64,000 nucleotides of DNA from Nymphaea colorata (taxonomy: Eukaryota): the NCBI RefSeq assembly GCF_008831285.2, contig NC_045138.2:17422001-17486000 (forward strand), read 5' to 3'. Below, piece after piece: positions 1-47,196 of this stretch. Under the pieces are notes generated by a model, which was not told where the DNA came from, made no database searches, and worked only from the letters and a program-made list of their open reading frames with translations. The translations under genes and the position numbers were made by a program. How positions within the stretch are numbered: the stretch's first letter is position 1; every line of letters begins with the position of its first letter.

Positions 1-280
1 AGTGTGAGTCTGTGACTTAATATAATATCGTTGTCAAATGACGCCACAACTTTTTTTCTTTTGCCGGTTCTTCACCTTTTAGATTAGTTCCGTTTTTATC
101 TTTTCTTAGATCAGAGTCATAATGAATCCACATCTGTAAATTTGAAAAAACAACATTCCATGAGCTTGTGTTTACATGAAAACAGGTAAATTAAGACTCC
201 GAATACGAGCAAGAGTAGGATGTTGCTTTGGATGACAGATCCAGATAAATAGATCTAGATCTTTTCATATGATCCAGACA
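1..280 (+). repeat. 3' flank/3'UTR module of the small 3-exon gene family; implies another paralog just upstream of the window
   Basis: Colinear similarity with 25880-26150, 35190-35470 and 22320-22450 (e.g. gttcttcacct..tagattagttc; tgtttacatgaaaa..gtaaattaaga.tccgaa; gatccagataaatagatc). Confidence 0.75.
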
Positions 281-509
281 AAGCTCTCGTTTTCTACATG
301 GTGCAAAATCCTCGGGTCTTTAAATCTTCCCAACGACCTGCAAAGTTTACAACTTCAAAGTTTGGCAGCATGAAAATCGTGTTTTCACTTGCCTAAACGG
401 CCCACTCACCAAGTTAAGAAAACGAAAACAATATTGCTAGTCCATTGGGAACCAAATTAATTGGATCAGTCAATATAGTATGACTGGTGAGAGTCAATAA
501 ACAATCGGT

Positions 510-788
510 CAGATTATTCTGAATTATTTATAGTATTTTATATGTTAATCTTCTACGATATCAACACTCGAATTCTACATAAGCCTGTTATGTATTTTGA
601 AACTTAGTAGTTTGTTTAACTCAAAACTGGCTCCAAATGTGTGCTTCATTGAATGGTGGGGACATTCAATATTAAATTCACATTACATTGATGAACAATA
701 CAATTTATTTTAGTATAATTATTTATGAAACATTTGGGCTACAATTTCATCTTGTCGCTACACTGCCAACTAACAAATTAACAACCAT

Positions 789-819
<31 letters not shown>

Positions 820-1170
820 GTGGCCTGAGCAGCTGGGGTGTATAGTAATGAAAATTCAGTCTTTCTGCATTGCAGGTAATTCTGCTAATCCAATCTGTTT
901 TAAAAGTGTTTGAAACATTCAAACTCAAAAAATTGTATCTGTAGTTGAAGCAAAGCGAGACGCAAAATAAATTTAAAATTCCACCCCATCATCAATATCT
1001 GTGTACTTTATTTACCTTCTTTTGGTTTATCCCAATGCAATATTGAACTTTTCTGTTATCATTACTGAGTATACAAAATTATACAAAATAATGAAATTAA
1101 GTTTGCGAAAGGGGGATGGTTTCTGTCACAGTATTCCCAGCTTAAATTAGTAACTAATTGACAATACCAT
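510..1170 (+). repeat. Duplicated upstream/promoter module of the small-gene family, with no gene following
   Basis: Aligns by eye with 20630-21230 and 33040-33560 (ttttgaaacttagt; gttgatgaacaat; ggttttctgtcaca..aattgaca). Confidence 0.65.
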
Positions 1171-1708
1171 GTTTCTAATGAATGAAGCAATCCATAAGAT
1201 CGTTTGGCAAACAGAACACTTTGTGGGTGTTTTGTGAACCTAACACAAAATTTAGGACAAATTCATGGACACTTAGCTTTAGTGTTGCATGAATCTACAC
1301 TAATCTTTGAGTAAGATTCGTAGAACAGTCACGTGGTGTTCCAACTTCCAAATAGCCTCTTAGGGTTCCATCTTAAGTGGATTCAAAGGGTTTTAACTTG
1401 TGTCTATAAATTCTTAGGCATATGGACTATCAAAAGTCAGGGTAAAGGGTCTCGTGTTTGAAAGGGACTCGTTTGGGGGGATGGCAATGGGTTCAAGATA
1501 GAGTTGTCTTCAACCTTGGCAATGGGATTTCCTTGAATGAAAACCCAAACTCTCCATGGATTTGGATTTGTAGCGCTAAAGTCAAAATTGGTTAATCCAC
1601 ATTGCCTTCTCTAACTCGTTTGTGAAGATTGAGTAATCCAGACACTAATGTTTTAAAGGATTTAGCCTTTTTTATTTCCATGTCTTATAAAGCAACAGAG
1701 TTTGTATG

Positions 1709-1752
<44 letters not shown>

Positions 1753-1769
1753 CTGACGGTTGATAAAAT

Positions 1770-4045
1770 GAGGCATTTGTTTGAGGTTATCCCGGGACAA
1801 ACAAACCGGAGGAAGAAAAAAAAGATTTGACTTGATTTTTCTTTTTTGGTTTTGATTCGAACACGTAGAAAAAGCATTTTCCTTTCTTGAGGCAATGAGT
1901 ATGGAGGATGGAGCAGGGGTGGTGGGCATGATCGGATTAAATTGAGTTTTGGCCGTGAAGAAAAACAGCACACGATTTTGGGGTTCACTTTTAGTACATG
2001 CCTGTTACTTGTTACTAACCATGAATATGCACCTTCTCCCTTCCCCTTTAAGAGCATTTCAAATTCAGCTTCTCTTTCCTTGCATTCTTTTCTTCTCTCT
2101 TCACATTCACATTCTTCGATGCCAGCTGTTGACTAGTTTATTTTGTCGCTCTTTGATTGTTGGCTTTTTGCAGTTTATTTTGTATTCCTTTTATTTTTTA
2201 GCTCCTTTGTCATAATTTTTGTGATTGAATTTTTCATTTTATCGGTTGTATGTGCACATATAAATAAAAAGTACAGCATGTAAGCCAAAGACAAAGTGAG
2301 GAGTCAAATGCTGTTTGTTGAGATCGGAGACCGATTGAAATTCACTTATCATTCAAGTGTGCAGCCGATTCCCCCAATGCAACTGATAGATATGTGCTCA
2401 CCTTTTACATTATTTAATACAGGTCCCCATCTATTTCAAGAAACTCATACGTAACTTCTATCTATAAGAAATATTAGCATTTTAATCATTTGCTGACCTT
2501 GCTGGAATGCAGAGATACTGTCGGGCTTGTCGGTAAAACCAGAGAGAGATCCCAGCAACGGAATAGCGACGGTGGTCGTATGCAAAATTTTTGGAAACTA
2601 ACTGAAAATTTACATAGGAGCAGAGAAAAAAGGTTGAAAAAAAGGGGAGGAGGCGGCGCAAAATCTTGATCATGGGGATATAATGCTCACGGTTCTCCCT
2701 CCACACCTTCTTCCCTCAAAACCAAGCTAAGATTTAGGTAGCAGAGGAAGAAAATGTGGAGGCCACCATCTCCTCCTCCAGCTGCCTCCTCTTACCTTTT
2801 CTTCCCAGACGAAAATCATCAGCTCCCCATCAAAGCCATGTCCTCCCTCTCCGACCACGATGACTCCCATAATCCTCAGCTCCCCTCGCTGGCAATCGGA
2901 TTTGCCAACATAACCGGCTACTCCATCATGTCTAGCCTGGCGATGGGGAAGAAGCCCTTCTGCAGCCAGGCCTATGACACGCTGCAATGGAAGCTTTTGG
3001 AATGCTCAGTGGGTAGGGTAGGCTGCTCAGGATGGCCGTGCCGACTTGCGTGTCAGTCTCCTTAGAGTGGTGGTGGTACGAAATCATGGTGGTGCTTTGC
3101 GGGCTACTGGCGGACCCAAAGGGTACGACGGTTTCTGTGGTGCGGCCAGGATGAAAACAGTCTAGCCACCGTCGCCTCCTTTGGGTCCACCGGCAGCCTG
3201 CAGAGCACCACCATGATTTCGTACCTCCACCACTTTAGGCACACTGACACGCAAGTCAAACCACTCCACAGAGCAGTTCATAAGCTTTCATTGCTGCGTA
3301 GCCGCAGAAGGGCTCCATCCCCATCACCAGGCAAGATAAGATGGAGTAACCGGTTATGTTTGCAAATCCGATTGCTAGCGAGGGGAGCTGATGATTACGG
3401 GAGTCATCGTGGTCGGAGAGGGAGGACGTGGCTGCTTTGATGGGGAGCTGATGATTTTAGTCTCTGAAGAAAAGGTAAGAGGAGGAAGCTGGAGGAGGAG
3501 ATGGTGGCTTGCACATTTTCTTTTCTTCATCTGCTACGTAAAACTAGTCAACAGCTGGCATCAAAGAATGTGAATGTGAAGAGAGAAGAAAAGAATGCAA
3601 GGAAAGAGGAGCGGAATTTGAAATGGTCTTAAAGGGGAAGGGAGAAGGAGCATATTCATAGTGGCTCCTCCTCCTCCTTACCTTACCTTACTAAGAAAGT
3701 CAGAACTGCTTAATCCTTTTCCCCTAATCAACTCACACCCTCATCCCAATCCCCATTATCATATCCATGACGAGCCCACTTTCCAAAACCTGCACGGACA
3801 AGTAACAAGCAACAGGCATTTACTAAAAGCAAACCCGAAATTCGTGTACTGTTTTTCTTCACGGCCAAAACTCAAATTAATCTGCCACCGTTCATGCCCA
3901 CCACCCCCGCTCCTTCCTCCATACTCATCGCCTCAAGAAAGGAAAATGTTTTTTCTACTTGTATGAATGGAAACCAAAAAAAAAATCAAATCCAATCTTT
4001 CTTTTCTTCCTCCAGTTTGTTCGTCACCGCATAACGTCAAAGAAT
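1770..4045. repeat. Large inverted repeat. Outer arms 1770-2139 and 3540-4045, inner arms 2738-3133 and 3168-3536; a ~600-bp insertion (2140-2737) is in the left arm only
   Basis: Direct reverse-complement match, e.g. 2101-2139 tcacattcacattcttcgatgccagctgttgactagttt vs 3541-3579 aaactagtcaacagctggcatcaaagaatgtgaatgtga. Confidence 0.9.
2738..3536. ncRNA. Candidate hairpin RNA/proto-MIRNA locus A: inverted duplication of an internally deleted MATE (DTX48-51-like) gene
   Basis: ~380-nt arms around a ~35-nt loop (3134-3167). Arms translate to MATE motifs LAIGFANITGYS..LAMG.EPFC.QAY..QWKLL and CVS.LEWWWYEIMVVLCGLLADPK. The right arm has ATG TGC AAG CCA (MCKP) at 3516 on minus behind a pyrimidine-rich leader. 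RNA function is inferred. Confidence 0.65.
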
Positions 4046-4276
4046 CACATGCTACATGTTTTTGCCCAAGATGATGATGATGAAGGATATTTCAATAAGC
4101 ATCAATCTAGGCTTGAAAAGTCCGAGTAAAACATCTTTTTGTGTACACAGAAAAACATTTTGAGGACAAAAAGTTAGAACCCTTCAGCTCTCTAGTCTTT
4201 TCCTTTTTGAATTTTACCCTTTTTTAACAAGCCAAACTGGTGACGTTTTTCCAAGGAAAAAAAGTCTTGCCTTCAT

Positions 4277-4325
<49 letters not shown>

Positions 4326-4723
4326 CAGAGAAGCACCAACACAAGATATCAAATACAATCCCCCCGAAAGAAAAACCCTCCCCAGAAAGCAAGCAACCCA
4401 ATATTATTACCTTAAGCACTACTCCCCTGGACTGGAAACAGTGACCCCAAAATGATCATATTTTGAAAAATTTGGTTTTTGTTGTCTCAGGAGCATCAAT
4501 CCGCAATGAAATACTGGAAGGGTTGGAAGTAGGAACCTTTCAAAATTGATGTTGCTTCTGAACTAATTTTATGAACATGGTTAATAATCAAACTGGATGG
4601 AATTTAGCAGATTATTCTTCTTGTGGTTCTAAATCGTTTGTGGTGGTGTAATTTCCAGAAACCATTTGTAGGAAACTCTTGAAAAGATCCCCATTTCTAG
4701 TCCCTGTCCTAAGAGGCTTACAA

Positions 4724-4764
<41 letters not shown>

Positions 4765-5254
4765 GGGGATATGTTGGGTTCTTGCATTTGGGGCATTAAA
4801 AATAAAAAATAGAAGACATGAAAGCATAAGTACTTTATGAAAAAGATAATAAAAAATAACGATAAACTAAAAACTGAGAAGCAAATCAAAAACATATTTG
4901 AGAAACAATTTTCAACCCACTGTAAAACCTCATTACAACATCTCTCACTAAAAATTTCCTAAGAGAGTATGTCATTGAATGGAATGAAGGGCCAAACCTT
5001 TCCCAATGAGGACGACATACTTTTGTTGTATAGGTTAACACCACCACTTTAACTCAACTTTCATATCGGTACCTCATTAACTCAACTTTCATATCGGTAC
5101 CTCATTATTTTTTGCAGTACAAAAAGTTGATGCTACAAAAGTTTGAAACCGAGACTGACTGCTTGCTGGCCCCCCCCTCGAAAATAATATATAAGAATTA
5201 AATGGATTCACTAAGTAAGAGATGAACCAATTACTTGAAATAATCTTTAGGCTG

Positions 5255-7060
5255 ATAAGGAAGGAGAGGATTCTCCAATCTTCCTCATCATTTTCCTCCC
5301 TATATACATTTTATTTTTTTTCAATTATTTAATTATTATGGTCAACATTCCATGAAATGTACCGCCCACTTGCCTTCACATTGGTGAGGGCAAAATTTTA
5401 CAATCTTCCTTACCATTTTTCTCTATATATAATATATTCTTTTTCTTTATTTAATTTTTATTATAAATACTTGATGGAACACTTTTTTTAGCAATGTCTT
5501 CAAATTTTGAATCTGAAAGCTAAATGATTCTATGAACCGGTGAATCGAATCCGAATCATTTGTGAATAAGAATTAATTAAAGATTTATTTAGATATAAAA
5601 ATTAAACAATTGAAAAATCAGTGGGGAGAAGAAGAAAAATTTTTAAAAACTAAAAATAAAAAGAACACAATGAACTCATTTAATGGCGAATCTGCACCTG
5701 CTAGCGACATCTTTTTTAGTAGCAATCAAAACGAGTTATGATTTAAGGTGCAACGAAATAAATTAAAACTTATTGTATGCTCTATTTTAATAGAAAAAGA
5801 GGTTGAAGGGCTATTTGTATAACTTTTGGTCGTCCTTCTATCCAGGTGGAGCGGCGGATCCATATGAAAATCGCCAGATTTTTCGTGGGCATTGAGTTGG
5901 CCTTCAGCGAACTGGTAAAGAGCCGATTTGATTCGAATTGGCCGATTCACCGATTTTAATAACACTGGATTTTACAATGATAGAGGACCGAATTTTGATA
6001 CAATCTTCTTCATCGTTTTTCTCCATATATAATTTTATTTCTCCAATTATTAATTTATATGATAAAGACTAGTTGAAAAGTATTGCCCACTTGTTTTCAC
6101 ATGATTGGGTATGAAGTGAACTAACAAACTCTTGTTCATATAACTAAAACAAAATCAGAAATTGAATCAAATGGACCGATTCTAAAAAAATAATAATAAT
6201 AAGAAAAAGGAAAACATAGAAAAGCTTATCAAAAGTAAATAAACAAAAAAATTTTAAAAAGTGAACAAAAAAATGATGTGTCTCATATGGGGTAAGCTGG
6301 GCATTGAAATAGATTTTGGCAGAGATATAGGCAAAGATGAAACCTAAGGCATTGGCTCTCAGCTTTGAGACCATCAATGAAACTTAATGACTCGTTAGCA
6401 TGAGGAATATTGTGCGAGTGTTTTATGAATCTTACTCAATTATTGAGTTAAATTTATGAACTACTTGAATAATTTTTTAATGAATCTTACAACCTCATGC
6501 CAGATAGTTCAAGGTACCTTTCTGCATCTTATTGACATGCAACCCGTTCCTATTACTGCTCTGTCGTCACATAAAAACATATTTATACCATGTGCCCTAT
6601 ATAATCTACTTTTTATGTATTTTTATTTTTCTAACTTTTTGTAGACTTTCAAGTGTTTTTTTTATTTAATTACCTCGAATCGATCCATTTGATTGATCAA
6701 ACCATGTGAAAACCATGTGAAAACAAGTGGGCAGTACCTTTCATATAGTGTTCATCATAGAAATTAATTAAAACGAAAAGTGGAATTATATATAGGAGGA
6801 AAACGACCGAGAAGATTGAAAAAATCCTTTCTCCATCAATGTACGTCAAAACCAGTGACCGATACTGTTTAAGGAGTATTTATAATGGAAATGAAATGAA
6901 GAAAAAAATAAAATTATATACAAAGGAAAATTATAAAGAAGACTGGAAAGTCTTTCCTCTCGTCGATGTGAAAGCAAGTCGTGGTACATTCTTCGTTGAG
7001 TCTTCGCCATAATAATTAAGTAAATAATATATATATTTAAATAGGTGTGAATAACTTATG
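5255..7060. mobile_element. Degenerate fold-back-type repeat built from ~125-bp AT-rich subrepeats; forward copies at 5260-5480 and 5965-6105, reverse copies at 6715-7060
   Basis: The motif caatcttc..cattttt ctc.atatata..ccacttg.tttcaca recurs in both orientations. Related copies at 11545-16330, 18690-19440 and 39190-39985. No transposase or TSD seen. Confidence 0.45.
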
Positions 7061-7983
7061 CGCCCTAACCCTCTCCAAAAAAAGAAGTTTGGTTTTTTTT
7101 CACACTCGTTGCCTAAACACTTCAACCAGGTCTGAAATTGTTGTCAAAATACTTTGATTTGTGAAATTAAACCTAGTTCTCCAAAGAGTACTACCTAAAA
7201 GCTTTAAAATTTTGAGAAAAAAAAAAGTGCAAAATCGATTGAAAATGAAGAATTATGCCATATCACATACAAGTGAAGAAAAGTCGCAATATCTGAATAC
7301 CAACCCAATGTTGGTCTGCTCCCTTTTCGGGAAAGATATCCATTTTCATGACCAAAAACTCAATAAATGGATCTTTCTAATCTGTTTGAACCAGAGCCAG
7401 ATATATATTTTTTGTGAATTTCATTTCGTTCACGTTGGTACAGGGCTAACCTGATCTGGACCCATTTGTGCAATATCTGCATCTCTATTGGATTTAACGT
7501 TTGGATCAAGAACCAAATAAGAGCACCATTCACCTACTTAGTTCAACTTCAAGGGAGGTCAAGAGTTCAAAACCCATGCTGCTGCAGAATAGGGCCTATC
7601 TAAGCTCAGCAATCCTCTTCTTTTTTGCTTGACCAAGAGAAAGAACGAAACCACATTTAACTAGAAGAGGTCCTCATGAATCGCATATATAAGAAGAAAA
7701 AAGTTACATTCTCATTCAGTTCTCATCTATTATGTCTACTTCGTTTTACAAATTGGTATATGATTTGCCGGCAATTAACATGCCCATCTTTCCCCGTTGT
7801 TTTTTGCTTGCATTAACATATAGAAATGTGATGTGGACCAAAATTTGAATCTATACTTCACCATATCTCTGCTTTTTCAGATTTCTGTATGTCATGTTTT
7901 CAATTCTTGTTCCTTGCTGTCAAAGTAGAAATAAACATATCATTATCTTTAAATGATGTTGTCATTTGTCATACTTTACTTTC

Positions 7984-8750
7984 GATCCCCTAGTTCGTAT
8001 GATTTTCTTTCGAGACAGCACGTTCAAAGGAATGGGTGTTTGCATGGCTGGTGATGCATTAGCAAAGGGAGAGTGGGCTAAGTAGGTTTGGTGTCTCAAC
8101 CGATGACTAGGGGGAGAAAGGAAGAGAACCGGTAGATAGGGCCAGCACTCGAGTCGGAGAGTTATCCGTCTACATGACCCTACACACGTTTTAATGTGAG
8201 CACCAAAAAGAGGCTAAAGAATTTTTTTTTTTTGGTTTTTTTTCCTCCCTCTCTTTTTTGTTTCTAGAAGTGTTTGTTTATTTGACTGAGCCAGGCTGGG
8301 TAGCGTTTTGATGGGAAGATCTTTTTATTAGAATCTCCCGTCTTTCGTCCTTAGACTTAAATTTTATGTATTTTTTTTAAAAAGAAGCATGGGAAGAATT
8401 TTTTTTTTATATATAAATGCATAAAATTTAAGTCGGAGGAGGAGGGAAGGGGATTTGAAAAAGAATATCTTTCCACCAAAGTGCAACATAGTCTAGCTCA
8501 GTCAAAAAACATTTACATGTGCCCCCATTTCCCTCTCTTGGTGCTCACATAAAAAGACGTGTCTACTCATGTAAACGATTAAGCTGGGCTCCAGTACCCT
8601 GTACCGGTTCCGTTCTATCCTTCCACTGGCTATCGGTTGGCCCCCAATAACAATTTAACCGACTCTTCCCATTGCTAATGCATCATTAACCACACAAACA
8701 CGCCTTGCTTCTACTGTGTCGACTTGAAAGAAAATTAGGCAAGCGGGGTC
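7984..8750. mobile_element. Non-autonomous fold-back element with long TIRs (MULE/MITE-like), copy A
   Basis: The two halves are reverse complements (gatcccc...ggggtc; gatgcattagcaa vs ttgctaatgcatc) around an AT-rich centre. No TSD recognised. Confidence 0.6.
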
Positions 8751-9339
8751 AGAAAGGTTGGAAATGAACAAAACTGCTGAATAGAAGTATATATATGTAT
8801 ATTAAATAAGTTGAAGGCAACGAGTCATTTTAAGTTTCATCCAATCACGGCCACCCAATGTATTATCGGGCAAACACAACGAAAAAAACTGTCCATAGCA
8901 TCGCAGACTCGAAATGCATTGGTGGTGTGTTGTAAAAAGGCCAAAGGATTTCTTTATCAACAGTGCTCTGCAATTGATCAGGTGATACTTATGTGAATGG
9001 TTCCACTAGAAAACTGTATGGGAATGGTTAAGTTCACTTTAACTTCAAAATTCACCAAAAATACAAGATAGTTGACCAAATATTAGTGTTATAATATAAT
9101 TAGAGCAGTAGCGGAGGCAACTGTGTTGTGATGTAGGCTGTTGCCCACACGAGCCCTTGAGAAGGCACTAAAGTAAAACCATGCGGACTCTTAAAATGCT
9201 TTTTGTTTGTAAAGTACTAAAAATAACATATTACATCCTCCAGAACAATGTAAGCTTTTTACAATTTATGACTTGAACAAAAAATATTTTATTTAAAAAG
9301 TTTTTTGGTTTGAGATGGAAAGGTCAAGCAAGGAGGGGA

Positions 9340-10080
9340 AGCTTCATCCTCTTACCTTTTCGCACCCCAGAAAATCGTCAACTCCCCATCAAAGCCACGT
9401 CCCCCCTCTCCGACCACGATGACTCCCATAATCATCAGCTCCCCTCGCTAGCAATCGGATTTGCAAACATAACCGGTTACTCTGTCATATCTGGCCTGGT
9501 GACGGGGATGGAGCCCTTGTGCGGCCAGGCCTACCACACGCAGCAATGGAAGCTTATGGACTGCTCTGCGGGTGGGGTGGGCTGCTCCGGTTGGCCGTGC
9601 CGACTTGAGTCTGCTTGGAGTGGTGGTGGTATGAAATCATGGTGGTGCTCTGCGAGCTGCTGGCGGACCCAAAGGAGGTGATGGTCTCTGTGGTTTTTTT
9701 ATGGTGCGGCGAGGACGAAAATAGTCTCACCACGGTCGCCTCCTTTGGGTTTGCCAGCAGCCTACAGAGCACCACCATGATTTCGTACCACCAACACTCC
9801 AAGCACACTGACACGCAAGTCAGCATGGCCATCGGAGCAGACCACCCCACAGAGCTGTACAGAAGCTTCCATTGCTGCTTGTCGTAGGCCTGGCCGCAAA
9901 AGGGCTCCATCCCCGTCATGAGGCCAGATATGACGGAGTAACCCGTTATGTTTGCAAATCCGATTGCTAGCGTGGGTAGCTGACGATTATGGGAGTCATC
10001 GTCGGAGAGGGAGGACGTGGCTGCTTTGATGGGGAGCTGACGATTTTGGATTGGGAAGAAAAGCTAAGAGGAGGAAGCAG
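9340..10080. ncRNA. Candidate hairpin RNA/proto-MIRNA locus B, MATE-derived paralog of A
   Basis: Arms 9340-9690 and 9728-10080. ORF-track translations show LAIGFANITGYSVISGLVTGMEPLCGQAY and EWWWYEIMVVLCELLADPK on +, and CVSVCLECWWYEIMVVLCRLLANPKEATV on -. Confidence 0.65.
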
Positions 10081-10594
10081 GAGAAGGAGATGGTGGCTTG
10101 CACACTTTCTTTTCTTCCTTTGCTACGTAAAACTAGTCAACAGCTGGCATCAAAGAACGAATGTGAATAGAGAAGAAAAGAGTGCAAGGAAAGAGGAGCT
10201 TTTTTAATCCAATCTCCATACTCATCGCCTCAAGAAAGGAAAATGCTTTTTCTACTTGTTCGAATGAAAACAAAAAAAAAAGAAAATCAAATCCAATCTT
10301 TCTTTTCTTCCTCCAGTTTGTTCGTCACCGCATAACGTCAAAGAATCACATGCTACATGTTTTTGCCCAAGATGATGATGATAAAGGATATCTCAATAAG
10401 CATCAATCTGCAGGGGCAGTCTGATAGGCTCGAAAAGCCCAAGTAAAACATCTTTTTGTGTACACAGAAAAACATTTTGAGGACAAAAAGTTAGAAGCCT
10501 TCAGCTCTCTAGTCTTTTCTTTTTTGAATTTTACCCTTTTTTAACAAGCCAATCTGGTGACGTTTTTTCAAGAAAAAAAAGTCTCGCCTTCATG

Positions 10595-10625
<31 letters not shown>

Positions 10626-11082
10626 AATTTTTAGTGACAGGGAAGCACCAACACAAGATACCGAATACAGTCCCCCCAAAAGAAAAGCCCTCATCGGAAG
10701 GCAAGCAACCCAATATATTTCATCTGTTTTTTTCCCTTAAGCACTCCTCTGAACAGTGACCCCGAAATGATCATATTTTGAAAAATTTGGTTTTTGTTGA
10801 TTGGATAAGATTTTTCTCAGTGACCTTTTCTTTTCATTTTCTTCCTTTCTCAGGGGCATCAATCCATAATGAAATACTGGAAGGGTTGGAAGTAGGAACC
10901 TTTCAAAATTGATGTTGCTTCTGAACTAATTTTATGAACATGGTTAATAATCTAACTGGATGGAATTTAGCAGATTATTCTTCTTGTGGTTCTAAATCGT
11001 TTATGGTGGTGTAATTTTCAGAAACCATTTGCAGGAAACTCTTGAAAAGATCCCCATTTCTAGTCCCTGTCCTAAGAGGCTT

Positions 11083-11122
<40 letters not shown>

Positions 11123-13014
11123 GGGGATATGTTGGTTTCTTGCATTTGGGGCATTAAAAATAAAAAATAGAAGACATGAAAGTAAAAACTGAGAAGCAAA
11201 TCGAAAACATATTTGAGAAACAATTTTCAACCCACTCAAAAAGCTCATTACAATATCTCTCACTAAAAATTTCCTAAAAGAGTATGTCATGGAATCGAGT
11301 GAATGCCCAAACCTTCACTTCTCCGATCTCAATCCTCTTAGGGTTCAGGACGACCTACTTTTGTTGTATAGGGTTAAACACCACGATACTTTATTATTTT
11401 TTGCAGTACAAAAAGTTGATGCTACAAAAGTTTGAAACCGAGACTGACTGCTTGCTATCCCCCTCCCTCCAGAATAATATATAAGAATTAAATGGATTCA
11501 ATAAGTGAGAGATGAACCAATTACTTGAAATAATCTTTAGGCTGATAAGGAAAGAGAGGATTCTCCAATCTTCCTCATCATTTTCCTCCCTATATGCGTT
11601 TTATTTTTTTTTCAATTATTTAATTATTATGGTCAACATTCCTTGAAAAGTACCGCCCACTTACCTTCACATTGGTGAGGGCAAAATTTTACAATCTTCC
11701 TTACCATTTTTCTCTATATATAATTATATTTTTTTCTTTATTTAATTTTTATTATAAATACTTGATGAAACAATAGTTCACTTGGTTTTAGCAATGTGTT
11801 CAAATTTTAAATCTGAAAGCTAAATGATTCTATGAACCGGTGAATCGAATCCGAATAGTTTGTGAATAAGAATTAATTAAAGATTTATTTAGATATAAAA
11901 ATTAAACAATTAAAAAATCGGTCAGGAAAAGAAGTAAAATTTTAAAAAACTAAAAAAAACACACACACACACACAATGAACTCATTTAATGGCGATTCTG
12001 CACCTGCTAGCAACATTTTTTTTAGTAGCAATCAAAACGAGTTGTTATTTAAGGTGCAATTAAAAAAATTAAAACTTCTTGTACACTCTATTCTAATAAA
12101 AAAAAAGGTTGAAGGGCCATTTGTACAACTTTTGGTCATCCTTCAATCAATACATATATAAGGTGGAGCGGCAGATCCATACGAAAATCGCCAGATTTTT
12201 CATGGGCATTGAGTTGGCGTTCAGCGAACTGGTAAAGAACTGATTTGATTCGAATTGGCCGATTCACTGTTTTTAATAACACTGGTTTTTACATTGATGA
12301 GGATGGGATTTTGATTCAATCTTCTTCATCGTTTTTCTCCATATATAATTTTATTTCTCCAATTATTAATTTATATGATGAAGACTAGTTGAAAAGTATA
12401 GCCCACTTGTTTTCACATGATTGGGTATGAAGTGAACTAATAAACTCTTGTTCATATAACTAAAACAAAATCAGAAATTGAATCAAATGGACCGATTCCA
12501 AAAAAATAGTAATAATAAGAAAAAAACATATAAAAGCTAACTAAAAGTTAAAAAACAAAAAAAAAGAACAAAAAAATGATGCGTGTCACATGGGGTAAGC
12601 GGGGCATTGAGATAGATTTTGGCAGAGATATAAGCAAAGAAGAAACCTAGGGCATTGGCTCTCAGCTTTGGGACCATTAACAGAGCTTACGACTCGTTTG
12701 CATAAGGAACATTGTGCGAATGTTTTATGAATCTTACTAAAAAATTGAGTTAAATTTATGAGCCACTTGAATAATTTTTTCATGAATCTTCTCCAATATT
12801 TAAGGCAGATTCATAAAACAACCTCATGCCAGACAGTTCAAAAGTACATTTCTGCATCTTATTGATAGGAGCCCGTCCCTACTGTTTTATTGTCCCATAT
12901 AAATATATCTATACCCAGTGCCCTATATATTTTATTTTATGTATTTTTATGTTTCTAACTTTTTATAGACTTTTAAGTGTTTTCTTTATTTAATTACTTA
13001 GAATCGATCCATTT

Positions 13015-16000
13015 ATTAAACAAAATGAGCTATACAAAAAAAGGGAAAGGATAACAAAGAAAAAACTACTATCCTTCAGCACAGTATAACCAAAGGCTGA
13101 CTCAGCTATTCCGAAAAACAATTGTCATAACACTAGATACAAGAAAAAACTAAAAATCAGTGTGGGTTAGCCAGCATAGAAACAAACGTCCCTCCACTCC
13201 TTGACGTAGGAAGTAATGAAGGATCCAAAATCAGCCGTAGGATGATCCCTTTCAATATTGACATTGTAGTGGAAATCATTGACAAGCATGTGGAACTCTG
13301 ACCATATTCTACTGTTGTCATAATGTTGTTGTATCCTCCAGACAACGGCTTCGATCCTAGTGCAAATAGTAACACAACCGCCATACTCCTTAGGATACCT
13401 GAACAACTTTTCCATCTTCTCCAGCTCACCAGCGAGTACCCTGCCCCTTGGGCTCAACAATATAGCCATACCATTAGCTCCGTCACTGAAATAAGAGTTC
13501 CCAGCAACCCTCAACTTCCCAGCAATTTCGACTTGTATGACCTCAAAAAAAAGCATCTTAGAAGGTTCTCTACGCCTGGCAGAACACATAAGATTGGAAA
13601 TGGCTCAAGTACGGACAGTGCCTTCCGTTTCCTTGGTCCCTTTGATACCCAAGAACCCAAGTACGGACAGTGCCTTCCATTTCCTTGGTCCCTTTGATAC
13701 CCAAGAAAGTCGCCTCACATGTCGACCATACTTCTTCTTTAATATTAATGGCTGCACTAGATTTGTCTTCATGCATCAGCTTATTGCAATGCCACCAAAT
13801 TTGCCAGCACATAATAGAGAATGTGATTCTCCAACACATCCTCAGCCACCCGTCATGCACCTTCCTATGCATCCATCGTTTGATTTCAAACTAGAAATTA
13901 CGAGTGGGTGACTAGATGACACCGAACTTGGCCAAGATCCATTCCCAAATTCTCTGGCTACCTAGCAATGGAGGATAATATGTTCATTAGTTTATTCAGC
14001 TTTCCTACAAAAAAAGCAACTGTTATCAAGTTGGAAACCTAGTTTCTTGATTCTGTCTAAAGTGGGTAGTCTGCCCTCGCTTGCAAGGAAGCTGAACCAG
14101 TATGTACTAGATGAAGCATTTCCTTGCCAAATATATTTCCTTTATCTCTCTCTCTCTCCTTGGCTCCCCTAGTATGATCAAGAATGTCTCCAACTTCAAT
14201 ACAAGATTGATGGTTGTCTGTCCAAACACCTGGTCAGCTTCATTAGATAGAGGGATAGAGTCTATGTTGCCAATGAAGCCTATGCACACATCCTCAACAA
14301 CATTTGTGCCCCCTTGCTCAAGAGCACTTTATTTTTAATCGAGATATTGAGTTCTCTCGCAATATTAACCAAACTATCCCCACTAATATGCTGGATAAGT
14401 GGGCTACCCTGCCAAGGATCGAGCCAGAAACGACAACGGCTGCCATCCCCAAGACTATTCTTTTGGAGGTACTTATCCTTGTACACTTTGGCCCAGACGC
14501 CATCATCCATCAAGAGTATGCTACACCTACAAGCCAACAACACGTGGTTCAAGTCCTCCACTTTGTGTAGGCCAATGCCCGCAAGATCATATGAGTTACA
14601 TAGTCTAGCCCAACTGATGTGGTAGATATGCCAAGTAGACTCACCATCATTCCAAAGGAATCTCTTGCATATGTTTTCAAGTTTTTTATTAATTCTACGA
14701 GGAAGACTTCAGACCGTCATCCAATAGTGGGGGAGGGTACTCCAAGATATTCAACTGGAAGAGAGCCCATCGTCCATTGAAGCATGTTCCCTAGATCCTC
14801 TACCCTACAATCCAAAGTTTTGTCCAGGAATACAACAAATTTTTCTTTGTTCACTTTCATACCGGCGAACTTCTCAAATTGCTCTAGGATCTCTTTAAGG
14901 AGCTTGTGGAAGCCTTAGAAACCATGAGAACATCGTCTGCATACATAACTGCTCATGTCTCCTGAGAAACATTCCGGATCTTGGGAATTTGGATGTTCTT
15001 GTTGCGGACCTCCACTTGAATATGACGATTGAAGATTTCCATAACTAGAATAAAAAGGTATGAAACATCGGGTCCCCCTGTCTGAGTCCTTTAGAAGCAA
15101 TGAACTTGTCCCCCAAGCGACCATTAATCACCATCTCGTACGACACTGAAGAAACACATTTTATCACTAACTCTGTCCATGTGGGGTGAAAGCTCAACAC
15201 ATGCATGCTTTTCTGCAAAAATTTCCAAGTTCTATCATAAGCCTTTGAGAGTTCCAACTTAAGAAAGCAACCCCCTTTCGACCAAAAATCTTTTGAATTA
15301 GCGATCTCATTTTCCCATAAAATGTTGTCTTGAATTTGCCTCCCTTTAGAGAAAACAACTTGGTTCCTTTGAACCAGTCACATGACGACATCCCTCATCC
15401 TGATAACTAGTATTTTGCAATAATCATATAAATGGTGTTGCATAAGGATATTGGCCTGTAATCCTTAACTCTGATGGCATTCGGTTTTTTTGCTATCAAG
15501 CAAATCATGTTGTGGTTAACACTTCCAACAAGTTTCAACCACATCATTTTCTATGATGCTCCAACAATCCTTGTAGAAATAGTTCGGGAAACCATCTGGG
15601 CTAGTAACACTATCCTTGTAGTTCGGGAAACCATCTGGGCCAGTAACACTATCCTTGTCAAGATTCTTGACCGCCATTGCTTTCTCCTCTCTCATGATTG
15701 GTCCTAACAACCACTGGTTTTCTTCATCGGTAACCATGTCGCCATCTACTATACCTACAAACAGTTCTCCAGAAGCTACATCAGACCCCAAAAGCTGCTG
15801 AAAATGAGAGGTACAAGCCTTCAAGATATTGGCTTCCTCTGTATGTGTTTCCCAATCAACTTCGATGAACCTTATATACCGCTTAGCCGTTGGCCATGAT
15901 ATGAAAGAAAGCTATGTTTTTGTCCCCCTCTATGAGCCATCTAACCCGACACCTTTGCTTCCACATTATTTCTTCCATACGGAGGAGCAAACCTCTAACC

Positions 16001-16018
16001 TCATACTCCTGTTTAGTA
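13015..16018 (-). mobile_element. 5'-truncated, frameshifted L1-type LINE retrotransposon: ORF2 reverse transcriptase plus probable RNase H remnants
   Basis: Minus-strand fragments GPDGFPNYFYKDCWSII, DYRPISLCN (~15440-15465), SKAYDR, KGLRQGDP, YADD (14932-14943) and RFWLDPW. Absent from the paralogous unit A. AATAAA at the 3' end (~13012-13017 on minus). Confidence 0.92.
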
Positions 16019-17187
16019 GGCAGTACCTTTCATATAGTGTTCATCATCGAAATTAATTAAAATAAAAAGTAGAATTATATATAGGAGGAGATTGAGAAAA
16101 TCCTTTCTCCATCAATGTACGTCAAAACCAGTGACCGATACTACTTATGGAGTATTTGTAATAGAAGTTAAATGAAGAAAAAAATAAATTACATACGAAG
16201 AAAAATTATAAGAAAGACTGGAAACTCTTCCCTCTCGTCGATGTGAAAGCAAGGGGCTGGTACAAAATTCGTGGTGTCTTCACCATAATAATTAAGTAAA
16301 TAATATGTATATTTAAATGGGTGTGAATAACTTATGCCCCCTAACCCTCCCACAAAACAAAACTTTGGTTTTTCTTTCACACTCGTTGCCTAAACACTTC
16401 AACCAGGTCTCAAATTATTGTTAAAAAACTATGATTTGTGAAATTCAACCAAGTTTTCCAAACAGTACAACCTAAAAGCTTAAAAAATTGAGAAAAAAAA
16501 TGCAAAATCGATTGAAAATGAAGAATTATGCCATATCACATAGCAAAAACTCAAAAAATGGATCTTTCTAACTTGTTTGAACGAGAGCCAGATGTATATT
16601 TTTTGTGAATTTCATTTCACTTTGGTACAGGCTAACCTGATCTGAACCCATTTGTGCAATATCTGCATCTCTATTGGAATTAACGTTTGGATCAAGAACG
16701 AAATAAGAGAACCACTCACCTAGTTAGTTCAACTTTCAAGGGAGGTCAAGAGTTCAAAACTCAAGCGGGGTGCAGAATAGGGCCTATCTAAGCTCAGCAA
16801 TCCTGTTCTTTTTTACTTGACCAAGAGGAAGAGAGGACAAGAGAAAGAACAAAACCACATTTAACTAGAAGAGGTCCTCATGCATCGCATATATAAGAAG
16901 AAAAAACTTACATTCTCATTCAGTTCTCATCTATTATTTCTAATTCGCTTTTACAAATTGGTTTATGATTTGCAGGCAATTAACGTGCCCATCTTTCGCC
17001 GTTGTTTTTTGCTTGCATTAACATATAGAAATGTCGATGTGGATCAAAATTTGAATCTATACTTTACCATATCTGCTTTTTCTGATATCTGTATGTCATG
17101 TTTTGAATTCATGTTCCTTGCTGTCAAAGTAGAAATAAAAATATCATCATCTTTTAATGATGTTTTCATTTGTCATATCTTACTCTT

Positions 17188-18011
17188 GATCCCCTAGTTC
17201 GCATGGTTTTATTTGGAGATGGCACGTTGGAAGGAATGGGTGTTTGCATGGCTGGTGATGCGTTAGCAAAGGGGGAGTGGGCTAAGTAGGTTCGGGGTTC
17301 CAACTGATAGCTAGGGGAGGAAGGAAGGGAACCGGTAGAAGGGGCCAGCACTCGAGCCTGGGCTGGCCGTCTACATGAGTGGACACGCGTTTTAATGTGA
17401 GCACCAAGAGGAGGCTAAATGAGATGCTTTTTTTTTTTTTAATTTTCTTCACTCTCTTTATTCTTTGCAAAAGTTTTTGTTTCATTTGACTGAGCCAGGC
17501 TGGGTAGCATTTTAGTGGGGAGATCTTCTTAGTGGAACCCCCATTCTCTCTTCCTCCCTCTTAAATTTTATGTATGCATGTATTTATTTATTTATCTAAA
17601 CAAAGTATAAGATGAAATACTTTTTTTATATAAATAAATATATAAATACATAAAATTTAAGACGGATTCAAAAAAGAATATCTTTCCACAAAAATGCTAC
17701 CCAGCCTGGCTAAGTCAAATAAACAAAAAATTTCACAAAGACAAAAAAGAGAGTGAAAAAAAAAAACATGTACATGTGCCTCCACCACCTCCCTTCTCTT
17801 GATTCTCACGCAAAAACGAGTGTCCACTCATGTAGACGATTAGGGGGGGCTCCAGCCTCTCCTACCGGTTCCTTTCTTCCATCATGCTGGCTATCGGTTG
17901 GCCCCCAACACCTATTTAACCCACTCGCCCCATTGCTAATGCATCACTAGCCACCCAAACACCCATTCCTTTCACCGTGCACTCTCGAAAGAAAACCAGG
18001 TGAGTGGGGTC
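17188..18011. mobile_element. Non-autonomous fold-back element with long TIRs, copy B
   Basis: aaggaatgggtgtttg..tggctggtgatgcgttagcaa (17232-17269) pairs with ttgctaatgcatcactagccacccaaacacccattcctt (17933-17971). Paralog of 7984-8750. Confidence 0.65.
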
Positions 18012-18576
18012 CAATTATGGCCACCCAATGCATTATAGGGCGGGGATGACCAGATAAACTGTCCATGATATCGAAATGCATTCGTGGTGTGCGGTGAAAG
18101 GCCGAAGGATTTCTTTATGAGCTGTACTCTACAATTGATCAGGTGGAGGTTACAATTGTATGGGAATGGTTTCAATGGAGAACTGTATGGGAATGGTCAA
18201 GATCGCTTCAATTTCAAAATTCACCAAAAAAGTACACGATAGTTAATCAAATATTAGTGTTATAATATAATTATAGCAGTAGCGGAGGCAAATGTGGGCT
18301 GATGTAGGCTGTTGCCCGCACGAGCCTGGAAAAGACACTAAAGTAAAACCATGTGGACTCTTCAAATGTTTTTTTTTTGTAAAGTACTTAAAATAACATA
18401 TTACATCCTTCAGAACTATGTAAGCATTTTACTATTTATGACCTAAACAAAAAATATTTTTATTAAAAAGTTTTTTGGTTTGAGATGAAAAGGTCTAGCA
18501 AGGAGGGCTAGCTTTCTCCAATGGACGGGAACATACGATAGGGTATAACCGTGATACGTTAAATAAAAAATAAAAA

Positions 18577-18609
<33 letters not shown>

Positions 18610-21600
18610 TACAAATAACATTTCTTCTATGTTTCAACTTGCATATTTGTATCTTCCTTTTATAATAGATTGGTATTACAAAGAATTCGAAATAAAAACT
18701 GATCGACCCTTGTTAAGTTATAGTGAAAAAGAATCATCTCCTGAATCTAATAGGGAAGGGAACAATTTGATTCAAATCCACCTATTCAGGCCAATTCTCA
18801 GTGATTTTACGACAATGCTCTCAACCCCTTGAATAGCAAAAACAATATCAACAATAATATAATAGGGAATTGGATAGATTTCCCCAAGGCTGAGAGATGC
18901 ACCAGTTCCCTGAAACAATTCTATGTAAATAAGGAAGAAGAGGATTCTCCAATCTTCATTTTCATTTTTCTCCATATATAATTTTACTTTGTTTCAATTA
19001 CTTGATTATTATGGTCAACATTCCATGAAAGGCACTGCCCACTTGCTTTCACATTGGTGAGGGGGCAAAATTTTCCAATCTTCCTTATCACTTTTGTCCA
19101 TATATAATCGTATTCTTTTTCTTTATTTAATTTCTATTATAAATACTCAATGAATACAACTGTTCACTTGTTTTTACCAATGTTATCAAAGTCTGTTTTT
19201 GATGGGATTGGAAAGTGATGATTCAGAATAGGTGAATCGAATGTGAATCAGAATCATTTCTGATTAAAGATGTATTAGAGACTTGTCCATATAATCAATA
19301 GAAAATCAGAAATCGAATGAAATGAACCGATTCCAAATAATTAAACTTATGAAAATGAAAAGCGTATAAAAGTTTTAAAAAAATAAAAAAAAAATATTAG
19401 AAAATAGAAGATAAATTAATTATGTATGGTACATGGAGGTGGCACCAACATTCAACTACATTTTTGCAGGACACTGGTTTTTATTACGGTAGAAGCTGCA
19501 GAAATGCGCCTGACTAAAATGAATGCAAGGAAAAATCACTAGCAATATGCCCTCAATTGTGATGTGATATATCATGATCATGCCCCATGAGGAGGACAGT
19601 GCAGGGAATCTAACTCGCAAACCCTTTTTATTAGAGATTGCTAACTAATCAAAGGCACATCTAAAATCAATTTCCGGATATTTCTTATCTTAATAACTAG
19701 TAATGACTAATGAGAGATCTTATGATTTGTAATAGCGTAATGCAACACAAGTAGACCCATCTAGCCACTCATACATTGAAATATGAGTAGACTAGGTTGG
19801 GTCAAAAAAAGTCGTTTTTGGCTCGTGTCCAGAAGGGATTTATATATGCAAGATTTCTGCAATTTTCTGTTCAGATTTGGAGGCTATCTCCCAATACACT
19901 ACTTGAATTTTGATGCATTACATCGAGTAATCTGTTTAATCTTTTCTGCCCAACAAGGGCGGAGACAAAAATTTTTCATGAGGGAGGCCGAATTAAGGTT
20001 TCTAAATTTTAACTAGGCCGAACGTATCATTTTTCAAAATTTTTATATAGAAATTTTCTAAAGTTTACATGTAAATTTTCTAAAGTTTACATGAAAAATA
20101 GTTAAAAAAAAATTTAACTATTTCTCTTATTATAGTTCAGCATTCATTATGTAGTCGAGTTGTGTCAAGTTCTTGCAACTAGAACTCGACTCACTGGACA
20201 TTTCGAACATACATTTGAACGCAAGCTTGACTCGTTTCTAAATGAGTCGAGTTCTGAGAATCAAGTTCAGGTCGAGCTTGAATTGGCTCGACAGATTGGG
20301 TGGAAGCTTTGGCATTCTTTGAGGCCATAGGTCAGACCCTACTCACACAAAAATTATGTTCTTTTGCCAATAACCATAATTCCTTTTGTTGGGTCAAATA
20401 TTACATTTGTTTCAACTAGACTACTTTGGTTGTCGCCTATGCGCATGGCATTAAGGTATCAAAGTAAATTACCAAAATGTCCTTAAGGCAGCTGGTCGGT
20501 TTTGTATTAATTTGGGCCCTTTTCCATTTATGGCTGTGTCATGTCTGATTTCATGTGTATTTAGTTCATTTATATTTGGTCTTTTTACATCCATATAATT
20601 TGAAAATCAGGTTAATAGGAATTTCAGGGTAGATTATTCTATTTAAATATTTTATGTTGTGGTCTTTTACGCAACCAAATCTCAAATTCTACACAGGCCA
20701 GTTATTATTTTGAAACTTAGTTGTATGGTTTTTCCTCAAATTTAGCATCAAATGTATCCTTCATGATAGACTGAGCCAAATTCAATATTTAAGTGACATT
20801 ATGTTGATGAACAATATGGTTTATTTTAGCACAATGATCGATCTTGTCCATCGACCAACAACTCTCAAATTGACCAGATTGAAATAAATATATGCTATAA
20901 AGGAGTACCCGAGCGGTTGGAATATTGTTTTAAAGATTCCGCTTTCTGCATGGTAGAAAATCACACTAATCCAATTTGTTTTCGGTGCATTTGGAACTTT
21001 TGAACTCAAACCATTTATATTCTTAAGCATACTTAAGGCAAAACAAGAAGTAAAGACCCTTATAGTTTACCTTATTTTAGTTTATCTCGATGTAATATTT
21101 AATTTTATGTTGACATTACTAAGTGTAGTACGATATGTGAATAAAAAATAATCTAATTAAGTTTGTTTTAATTGAAAACATGTTGGTTTTCTGTCACATT
21201 AATCTCATCTTTAATTAGTAAACAATTGACAACAAGAATCTTGGTCAGTTTCTAACAATATAAAAAAGTTACATTTCCTTTCTCCCTTGTAGTTGATTCT
21301 TTTGTTGAAAAGTTCCCTTTTTCAAACTCAACTTTGGAAAGGTTCGCAAAAATCAGCGAGCATTTAAAAGGTGTTTTTGTCTTTTTTCGTAAAAAAAAAA
21401 GTCCCTTTCAGATCGCCCAACCTTGGCACATAAAAATCACATGCATCTTAAAATAACATAAATGAGTTATTTGCTATCTTCAATACAGAAGAACAGAACA
21501 GACCTCAAACTAAAAGCTCCATTTAGAACTTTGTTGACGTGACTCCATAAGGAGATTTAAAGAACAGAAAGAAAACTCGAGTTCTTTGTGAAGGATGTGA

Positions 21601-23924: not shown

Positions 23925-24984
23925 TATGTTCATTGTATGACAATATGAATAATATGTTATGCGGAAAACCAAACAATGTTTTTGTATAATATGTTATGTT
24001 GGAGGGGGTGTTCATTGATGTTATGTTGATGAACAATATGATTTGTTTTAGCACAATGATTGATGAAACCTCTAAGCTACGTTTCGTTTTGTTCCTTGAC
24101 TTCCAACCCACAAAATAAATATATGCTATAAAAGGGGATCACCTGAGCGGTTGGAATATTGTTTTAAAGGTTTAACTTTCTGCATAGTAGAAAGTCTCAC
24201 TCAGCCTATTTGTTTTAGATGCATTTGGAACGTTTCCATTTATATTCTTATGTATACTTGAAGCAAAACAAGAAGTAAAATAGATTTAAATCTTAACCAT
24301 CATCAATATCAGTAAAAGTAAAGACAAATGGTTTATCTTATTTTAGTTTATCTCGATGTAATATTTAATTTTAATATTGGTAAGTATAATTAGATATGTG
24401 AATAAAAAATAATCTAATTAAGTTTGTTTAGTTGAAAGCGTGTTGGTTTCCTGTCACATTAATCTCAGCTTTAATCAGCAACCAATTGATAAAAAATAAT
24501 CTTGATCAGTTTCTAACAACATAAAGAAGTTTCATTTCCTTTTTTCTATTACATATATAGTTGATTCTTTTTTGAAAAGTTCTCATTTTTAACTTTGGAA
24601 AGGCCAGCGAGTATTTGAAGGGTGTTGTTGTCCTTTTTTACAAATAAAAATTGTCTTTCAAATAGCCCAACTGTGGCACTAATATGTGTGGATTAGTAAA
24701 CACAAAAAAAAAAAAAAAGTTCAGATGCAATTTGAAATAGCATAACTGAGCTATTTGCTATCTTCCATAAATAAGAATAAAACTGCTCTCAAACTAAAAA
24801 CTCCATTTATAACCTTGTTCACATGACTCCATTAGGAGGTTGAAAGAAGAAAAAGAAAAACTCACATAGAGTTCTCTGTGACTGTGAGGGCGATGGATGT
24901 GAGCAAAATGCCCTTATATAAAGGGAGTGGCAGACCATGGTCGTGATATTAAATAGAGAGAGAGCGAGAGAGAGAGGGAAGACT

Positions 24985-25707
24985 ATGGCGTCTGAAGATT
25001 CGAAAGCATCGCAGGAAACGACGTCTGAAAATTCGATGGGGACTATAGCGTTTGAAGATTCAAGAGCAGTACTGGAAACGTCGTCTGAAGATTCGAAAGC
25101 ACCACAGGGAACGACGTCTGAAAATTCGATGGGGACTATAGCATTTGAAGCTTCGAGAGCAGTACCGGAAACGTCGTCTGAAGATTCGGGGGAGTCTGTG
25201 GCGTTTGAAGCAGTACAGGAAACGGCGTCTGTAGATTCTAGAGCAGTCCTGGAAATGCTAAATGATGAACTTCAAGAACAGACAGAATTCGTATTGGGGC
25301 CATTAAAGGAATCTGTACTTAGCTTTCACATTAACCATTTTCTTTTTCCTTGCATTACATTTGATTTATTGTTATGTATTAATGTTTTTCCTTGTTTCTA
25401 GCCAACCATCGTTGGCATCACAGAAGAAAGAGAAGTCATCGTAAGCATATGGGACAACGATGAGCTGGAGACGTGCATTATCATACAACGTTATGACCCG
25501 TATGTATTATGGATTATTGTTTTTTCTATATGAACATTGATGGATTTCTGTTTTCTATATGATCACTGGCTTTTATCTGTCAATTCTTTTCACGTTTGAT
25601 CTTGTTCTGTTAGGTCTTGGAATTTTTGCATGCGGATTCCTGCAAACCAAGAAGATCTTAAACAAAGGGCCGAAGCAGCTGGTTTTAAGGTAGAGGTGGT
25701 GCCCTAG
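24985..25707 (+). CDS. Small uncharacterised 3-exon protein, family copy 2 (173 aa, Ser/Glu/Thr-rich repeated N-terminus). Exons 24985-25314, 25402-25499, 25614-25707
   Basis: TATATAAA at ~24915. Canonical GT-AG introns of 87 and 114 nt give a 522-nt open frame ending PSWNFCMRIPANQEDLKQRAEAAGFKVEVVP*. Homologous to copy 1. Confidence 0.75.
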
Positions 25708-34643: not shown

Positions 34644-35043
34644 ATGGCGCATGGAGTAGTGAAACCACATTGGAGAGCAATGGATGCAATCAGCAAATAT
34701 TATCAGTTCCAGAAAGACAAGACGAAGAGAAGGCTTGAAAGCGCACTCATTTTCATCTTCACCATTTTCCTTTTCTTCCATTTCATTTTGTTCATCATTG
34801 AGTATACTGTAATGTTTTTTGTTTTGAACTCAACCATCTTTGCGGAAGCAAAAAATGGAGAACACTTGATAAAGGTATCGGACAACGATCAGCTACAGAT
34901 ATGCGTGAGAATCCGTATGCTTTTATTTTTTTCTTACTAGTTTTCTTAGGGATTTGGTATTTCGTTTGTGGATTCCTGCAAAGCTACAAGTTCTTAAACG
35001 AAGGGCTGAAGCAGCTGGTTTTAAAGTAGAGGTGGAGACTTAG
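34644..35043 (+). pseudogene. Small-gene family copy 3: degenerate; could instead express an unspliced 98-aa ORF (34644-34940)
   Basis: Intron-1 equivalent has GC...AC ends (34743-34829) and reads through in frame. Exon-2 equivalent is 85 nt vs 98 nt (frameshift). Intron 2 is shrunk to 35 nt. Last exon ..LKRRAEAAGFKVEVET* is recognisable. TATA is degraded (tatgtaaa). Confidence 0.65.
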
Positions 35044-37394: not shown

Positions 37395-37464
37395 CTCTTT
37401 GTCTCTTCTTCTAGGTTTATTCCTCCCTTTGTCTGCTCCCCCTTTACATAATGTTTATTAAGCA

Positions 37465-38851: not shown

Positions 38852-38945
38852 CTAAGTCTCCACCTCTACTTTAAAACCAGCTGCTTCAGCCCTTCGTTTA
38901 AGATCTTCTAGGTTTGCAGGAATGCGCAGGCAAAGCACCAAATTT
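38852..38945 (-). pseudogene. Small-gene family copy 4: isolated last exon, 5'-truncated, convergent with copy 3
   Basis: The cttag acceptor is followed by a 94-nt exon NLVLCLRIPANLEDLKRRAEAAGFKVEVET*. About 45 nt of intron-2-like sequence is retained. No upstream exons found. Confidence 0.75.

Positions 38946-47165: not shown

Positions 47166-47196
<31 letters not shown>

Follow-up and report, generated by a model that had tools for sequence, protein, structure and literature searches.

A long, multi-copy hairpin built from a DTX48-like MATE gene in Nymphaea colorata, a candidate source of small interfering RNAs

A rearranged partial copy of a DTX48-like MATE gene, folded back on itself, forms a long hairpin that occurs twice (copies A and B) in the 64-kb stretch of Nymphaea colorata DNA analyzed here (the window). 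We consider it about an even bet (probability roughly 0.5) that this locus is a tissue-restricted source of long-hairpin siRNAs able to hit the parent gene and a paralogue, in the manner of SULF, OGI and PAI1-PAI4. The structure of the locus, its parent gene, its relatives in Nymphaea thermarum and the available transcript data are presented below, together with the explanations that compete with this reading.

Structure of the hairpin locus

Two inverted arms of a MATE gene, separated by a loop of ~35 nt, had been proposed for copy A in the original prediction, and this architecture was confirmed. The original prediction had missed that the loop itself is MATE sequence, that the inverted repeat of copy A reaches outward to 1777-4044 (self-comparison), and that copies A and B sit in a tandem duplication (self-BLAST). 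The features, in window coordinates, are as follows.

1777-2139 (+): left outer arm of copy A, non-coding, upstream of the MATE start
2140-2732: left-only segment of about 590 nt with no partner in the window self-comparison; insertion here or deletion on the right
2733-3132 (+): left inner arm of copy A; codons 1-40, linker, 94-131 and 270-314 of the parent (tblastn with the parent protein P0125)
2754-2871 (+): left arm piece 1, parent codons 1-40, followed by the 14-nt linker
2886-2999 (+): left arm piece 2, parent codons 94-131
3000-3131 (+): left arm piece 3, parent codons 270-314
3133-3167 (+): loop of copy A, 35 nt, mostly a fourth parent piece in sense (FLWCGQDEN, aa 160-167)
3168-3540 (-): right inner arm of copy A, the same mosaic inverted, with extra deletions of 11 nt and about 22 nt
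3541-4044 (-): right outer arm of copy A, made of 3541-3662 and 3801-4044; 3663-3800 has no left partner
9340-10134: copy B hairpin, 83% alike to copy A over 872 columns
9340-9686: left arm of copy B; the duplication breakpoint removed its first ~50 nt
about 9687-9730: loop of copy B (FLWCGEDEN)
9731-10134: right arm of copy B
10130-10345 (-): copy B, right outer arm, truncated by a deletion
2780-18514: tandem duplication; unit 1 at 2780-9344, unit 2 at 9340-18514
13024-16015 (-): insertion in unit 2 only, a LINE-like reverse-transcriptase remnant (RVT_1, E 7.9e-06, at 15048-15377)

The arms of copy A paired at 315 of 364 ungapped columns by Watson-Crick pairs, with 44 gap columns, and the longest perfect stem runs measured 29, 22, 22, 22 and 20 bp. 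The whole fold-back comprises about 816 nt with a stem of ~360 base pairs. RNA folding, which had been suggested as a check, bore out the hairpin: the predicted energy of 2700-3580 was -634.4 kcal/mol, compared to -299.9 ± 7.7 kcal/mol for shuffled sequences (n = 20; z = -43.4; 0/20 as stable). The two strands of copy A were nearly equal in folding (-626.5 and -616.6 kcal/mol), and copy B folded at -603 kcal/mol.

The three MATE motifs that had been claimed were found in the same order in both arms of copy A. The N-terminal MCKPPSP, however, occurs in the right arm only, as the left arm reads MWRPPSP. The QAY codons of the right arm have been lost through its 11-nt deletion, and the left arm contains a 103-codon frame (2754-3065) that runs out of the MATE frame after the second piece. 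Copy B gave weak Pfam MatE matches (E 3.6e-05 and 0.011), which lie below the curated cut-off. The arms carry no intact MATE frame (~500 aa), being interrupted by two large deletions, frameshifts and stops, and nothing past aa 314 is present. Judged from their sequence, the arms of copies A and B do not encode a functional DTX48-53 MATE transporter. Seven sequences, six arm frames plus one further ORF, were looked up exactly in a protein database, and 0/7 were found.

Both junctions of the mosaic are shared by all four arms, so the rearranged partial gene copy most likely predates the fold-back. The arms lie tail-to-tail, and a transcript entering from either side would therefore read sense and then antisense. 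Outside the inner arms of copy A, the segments 2018-2139 and 3541-3662 are 95% alike as reverse complements, and 1777-2016 and 3801-4044 are 85% alike. The left outer arm, which is absent from copy B (self-comparison), is possibly the promoter and 5' UTR of the parent gene; one contig of the public run X1 (see below) departs from copy B at 10138 into other sequence. A motif scan located a TATA-like word at 2679 (+), some 55 nt upstream of the left inner arm. No target-site duplication of at least 5 nt was found around 2140-2732. A bacterial promoter scan, a tool inapplicable to a plant, gave nothing above chance.

The tandem unit that holds copies A and B also contains a second, older hairpin family, C (C1 at 8000-8734 and C2 at 17204-17998). 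The arms of C1 and C2 are 63% and 73% alike, the hairpins fold at -314 and -439 kcal/mol, and they have no recognizable gene source.

Elsewhere in the window, a large nested inverted repeat occupies 34937-38958. Its 800-nt outer arms are 92% alike and enclose inner repeats (35949-36485 and 36926-37398) and an 80-nt tandem array (37385-37869); a target-site duplication of at least 7 nt was not found for this element, which resembles fold-back elements. A dispersed repeat family, probably a small non-autonomous transposon, is present in both orientations at 5183-6279, 6711-7023, 11473-12593, 18739-19436 and 39245-39984. Three ordinary genes are encoded on the minus strand: an intronless CSE1/exportin-2 gene (28352-31234), a bZIP gene with a bZIP_C domain (41698-47465) and a PPR protein gene (59665-62466). 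A 159-codon frame at 24922-25401 (+) consists of degenerate 33/60/93-nt tandem repeats; it matched no Pfam family, and the form tried had no exact counterpart in the database.

Parent gene and age of the hairpin family

The best long match of the arm was a Victoria protein (among the best 120 of 367 matches), whose cluster contains the N. colorata DTX48-like MATE XP_031480770.1 (P0125). We identify this protein as the parent, with a distinctive N-terminus that is common to the arms. No intact MATE copy was found within the window by tblastn with P0125. The parent is recorded with a contig of 30,884,114 bases and the window genes with one of 44,612,865 bases, so the two are unlinked if both contigs belong to one assembly, and the parent apparently lies on another chromosome. 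The origin that had been proposed, inverted duplication of a DTX48-type MATE gene, is supported, and the parent is intact and expressed.

The locus had also been described as newborn, which was not borne out: the arms differ from one another by 12-16%, and gene models of N. thermarum represent both the A and the B lineage. Pairwise differences between the four arms ranged from 12.2 to 15.7%, and the variable sites comprised 61 singletons versus 8 shared by two arms. In the duplicated unit outside the inner arms, nine stretches differed by 3.9-18.0%. Over the MATE and C hairpins, changes within a copy that are common to both of its arms outnumbered cross patterns by 8 to 1. This is a weak sign of arm homogenization, and three of the four MATE within-copy sites are explicable by CpG decay or conversion.

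In N. thermarum, three gene models bear the name DETOXIFICATION 48 or 49 (P0127, P0128 and P0129). They contain the arm junctions and continue past them in a reading frame that corresponds to the antisense arm. They are probably false predictions placed over hairpin arms; some of their segments correspond to MATE sequence read in antisense or out of frame. The derived state FCSQAY is common to P0127, P0128 and the left arm of copy A, and a 3-nt deletion together with ECWW is common to P0129 and the right arm of copy B; P0129 and P0128 are both recorded with a contig of 151,251 bases. Two further models belong to the family. P0277 aligned through the loop with the right arm of copy A (79% over 63 aa). 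P0247 makes two passes through sense, loop and antisense and is fused to what we take to be a copia gag-like tail. Its turn is longer, with the third piece reaching to about codon 325 before an LLWCGQ piece, which suggests that the window copies were trimmed later.

A pattern screen for junction and antisense signatures retained 4 of 322 proteins, and P0277 was recognized by eye and then checked. P0246 was dropped from the family because it is a repetitive model of an ordinary MATE gene, and P0252 because it is unrelated; the remaining protein-search matches, which had no junction and antisense signatures, were dropped as well. No mosaic model named for Victoria or Euryale appeared in the protein searches, which cover annotated proteins. 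The parent proteins of N. colorata and N. thermarum are 98.2% identical, and the PPR protein of the window shares 878 of 911 residues with an N. thermarum protein. Together, the comparisons indicate that the hairpin and the A/B duplication predate the split of N. colorata and N. thermarum, a dating based on gene models, which may hold predicted introns, and not on DNA.

Transcription and targeting potential

Seven of the 23 listed runs were examined (X1, X2, X3, X6, X13, X16 and X21). Region 1780-4250, with copy A, was aligned at 94%, and region 7030-11080, with copy B, at 80%. In the RNA run X13, 3 of 12,027,434 records aligned to the copy A region; all three came from the parent and none from the hairpin. 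On the copy B region, 26 of 11,567,375 records of X2, 5 of 11,104,680 of X6 and 12 of 11,041,679 of X16 aligned, all of them partially and none at 95% or more. The loose ends of these reads identify a DTX paralogue and, besides it, an unrelated gene; a few of the X2 reads resemble the parent. Any copy A read would be expected to align over its full length on copy B as well, and none did. X3 (90-nt reads) gave 0 of 12,092,265 records and carries no weight, as presence of the organism was not established in that run; X21 gave 0 of 528 contigs, which does not prove absence.

X1 is a public contig run of unrecorded type and with a different organism label. On 1780-4250, 17 of its 140,232 contigs matched, 9 of them at 99% or more. 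One contig of 485 nt spans arm, loop and arm (2898-3382) with 10 differences, and another covers 2032-2511 with 1 difference; 4021-4250 was not covered. On 7030-11080, 29 contigs matched. Their depth was greater at copy B and hairpin C1 than in the flanks, and three holes fell in intergenic DNA; such contig depth says little on expression. Holes in the cover, such as 2527-2692, were not taken as transcript ends because contigs reveal neither starts nor strand. X1 amounts to 32.9 Mb of contigs (longest 3,411 nt) with patchy cover, compared with a genome size of 409 Mb (PMC7015852), so RNA is a likelier origin for it than whole-genome DNA; it could also be an enriched DNA library. The hairpin is likely transcribed in some tissue or genotype.

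Further members of the hairpin families left traces in X1. A contig across the first junction (2823-2927) carries, at three sites, a state found in none of the four window arms and thus represents another allele or copy in the X1 sample. Hairpin C1 is covered by X1 contigs, one of which (250 nt) crosses its center with 0 differences. Another contig matches only 8273-8309, a core that is well kept in three of the four C arms, and hints at further diverged members.

Silencing of DTX48-51-like mRNAs in trans had been predicted, with a sufficiently complementary MATE mRNA as its prerequisite. The three X13 reads are parent mRNA, so the parent is still expressed in that run. They follow the left arm up to 2871 (two at 95-99% and one at 90-95%) and then diverge into sequence coding for LHKWPAFSE. 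From bin depths and loose-end lengths, the aligned parts are roughly 32, 32 and 67 nt long, with identities near 97, 97 and 94%, and we infer that some 21-nt window near 2840-2871 mismatches the parent mRNA at one position at most. Compatibility of the arms with the P0125 codons was also assessed. The right arm had no forced mismatch in 50 of 329 21-nt windows and at most one in 118 of 329; the corresponding counts for the left arm were 81 and 177 of 358. In one shuffle control, 0 of 329 windows had two mismatches or fewer. Such mismatch counts are lower bounds, as silent differences are invisible to them; true complementarity was seen for short stretches. Among the differences listed for the paralogue reads of X2 and X16, none separated them from the left arm of copy B at 9609-9631 (23 nt), where differences near read ends may go unlisted. 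This makes cross-targeting within the clade plausible. Stretches of the arms are alike enough to target the parent, and the left arm of copy B would pair with the paralogue over those 23 nt.

Competing readings and related systems

Under the preferred reading of a long-hairpin siRNA source, a rearranged partial DTX48-like copy would have formed first and then folded back tail-to-tail, and the hairpin would have multiplied before the split of N. colorata and N. thermarum. Transcription across both arms would start in the outer arms or in the insertion, and in only some tissues. The hairpin RNA would be diced by DCL2/3/4 into mixed 21-24-nt siRNAs, which may cleave DTX48-like mRNA, methylate DTX48-like DNA, or both. 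Dicing of long hairpins by DCL2/3/4 is established.

A serious competitor, which we hold to be possible though not probable, is a decaying palindromic pseudogene that is methylated, yields at most 24-nt siRNAs acting in cis, leaves the parent unaffected and has been copied passively and locally. The divergence of the arms looks neutral: they are at least as diverged as the flanks (12-16% versus 4-18%), so purifying selection is not visible. C-to-T changes on the arms affected 7 of 96 CG sites (7.3%, p = 0.014), 7 of 120 CHG sites (5.8%, p = 0.056) and 9 of 436 CHH sites (2.1%). The elevation at CG and CHG relative to CHH is consistent with a repeat that is methylated and perhaps silenced. G:U pairs had no strand bias (84 versus 71 over the four hairpins, p = 0.34; 16 versus 11 in copy A). 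Hairpin reads were absent from the four raw RNA runs, and the surroundings are repeat-rich and gene-poor. Inverted repeats are also prone to self-silencing; inverted-repeat transgenes are described as silencing themselves, with mismatches between the arms relieving the silencing (PMC9263138). A mere scar, however, does not readily account for X1 contigs that lie deeper over both MATE hairpins and C1 than over the flanks, with intergenic holes. Nor does it readily account for the retention of both arms since before the species split, in two window copies and at least three N. thermarum models. Should small RNAs be absent, the locus would be an ordinary pseudogene palindrome.

It is improbable that the locus is an aging MIRNA family, derived from inverted duplication of its target gene, from which DCL1 now excises a single precise miRNA/miRNA* duplex or a few of them. 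The MIRNA criteria that Axtell and Meyers set out in 2018 reportedly allow a fold-back of up to about 300 nt, with one miRNA/miRNA* duplex with 2-nt overhangs dominating the reads. The fold-back of about 816 nt far exceeds this length, and MIRNA status is unlikely for it. An Rfam scan of 1-20000 returned five matches, all far under the gathering score and typical of generic hairpins, the best being MIR1144 with 46.9 bits versus a gathering score of 90. A single protected 21-nt block was not apparent by eye in the four-arm alignment, and two arm motifs were absent from the accessible parts of the miRNA table of PMC7015852 and of the ANAgdb supplement (PMC11437788). In favor of a MIRNA, the family is multi-copy and common to two species, and the mismatches and bulges that it has accrued are those predicted on the route from siRNA hairpin to miRNA (PMC9641971).

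Least probable is that a non-autonomous DNA transposon of the Pack-MULE, fold-back or Helitron type captured the gene pieces and has the outer arms as its terminal repeats: the non-adjacent gene pieces, the long outer inverted arms, the several copies and the presumed copia tail of P0247 would suit it, but all four pieces come from a single source gene, the interior forms an inverted repeat of its own, the tandem duplication that produced copy B broke within the arm, and the best match for a target-site duplication at the outer ends was 5 nt, although an old element could have lost one. Capture of the Pack-MULE type leaves target-site duplications of 8-11 nt flanking terminal inverted repeats. 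The siRNAs of siren-like loci are Pol IV products, and any siRNAs from such a gene-capturing element would be so too.

The siRNA-source reading places the locus beside gene-derived inverted repeats such as SULF, OGI and the partial ARR17 and PISTILLATA repeats. Two of the five features of this class were found, namely a partial coding-gene copy present as an inverted repeat and an intact, expressed, sequence-matching parent elsewhere, and none was contradicted. Nymphaea is hermaphrodite, and sex-linkage is not expected. Like the Salicaceae ARR17/PISTILLATA repeats and Diospyros OGI, the water lily hairpins are partial inverted duplicates in several copies with an apparently unlinked parent; those systems lie in sex-linked regions and come with siRNA data (PMC13097978), whereas the parent here is a transporter gene. 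The PAI1-PAI4 repeat of Arabidopsis Ws, as described in PMC3203196, is similarly tail-to-tail, possibly includes upstream sequence, and would give a fold-back RNA by read-through. Unlinked family members share its sequence. A methylation trigger of the PAI1-PAI4 type would bring dense CG and non-CG methylation to the repeat and to its unlinked homologues; the C-to-T excess of the water lily arms may be an indirect sign of CG and CHG methylation. PAI1, however, is a whole working gene in a strain-specific repeat (PMC3203196), whereas the water lily arms are broken mosaics, 13% apart, that predate a species split.

Inverted gene duplication accounted for 399 of 8,649 plant miRNA loci (4.6%) in one survey (PMC9641971). 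The water lily hairpin is like such MIRNAs in origin (PMC9641971, citing Allen et al. 2004) and unlike them in its far longer stem; Nymphaea does not appear in the accessible text of that survey. In the accessible portions of the literature, no description of the hairpin locus was found; the small-RNA survey for which N. colorata small RNAs were sequenced (10.1101/2020.04.25.061721) may list it. Antirrhinum SULF and Mimulus YUP are taxon-specific small-RNA loci with small RNAs, targets and phenotypes; SULF targets the pigment gene Am4'CGT, and the target of YUP is unrelated to its source gene (PMC12371187). Like the water lily locus, they go back to a protein-coding gene that was duplicated incompletely or in inverted orientation (PMC12371187). 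The water lily locus differs from both in being a four-piece mosaic in several copies.

To our knowledge, natural gene-derived hairpins with demonstrated effects are few, and most act on flower color or sex. A hairpin able to hit several DTX48-53 members would, if real, be an unusual natural knock-down. In Arabidopsis, genes of the DTX48-53 clade, whose members are redundant, alter plastochron, organ size, branching and flowering time when overexpressed (PMC12643059). It is conceivable, though doubtful, that this one locus tunes several developmental MATE genes in one tissue through a kept and multiplied hairpin family whose retained pieces may include conserved DTX48-53 clade motifs. Were this so, an ANA-grade plant would regulate the MATE plastochron/organ-size pathway through a natural siRNA locus that acts in trans. 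The copies of differing age in two species would form a series in which the passage from inverted duplication to siRNA source, MIRNA or junk could be followed, and it is an early-diverging flowering plant that would provide this series.
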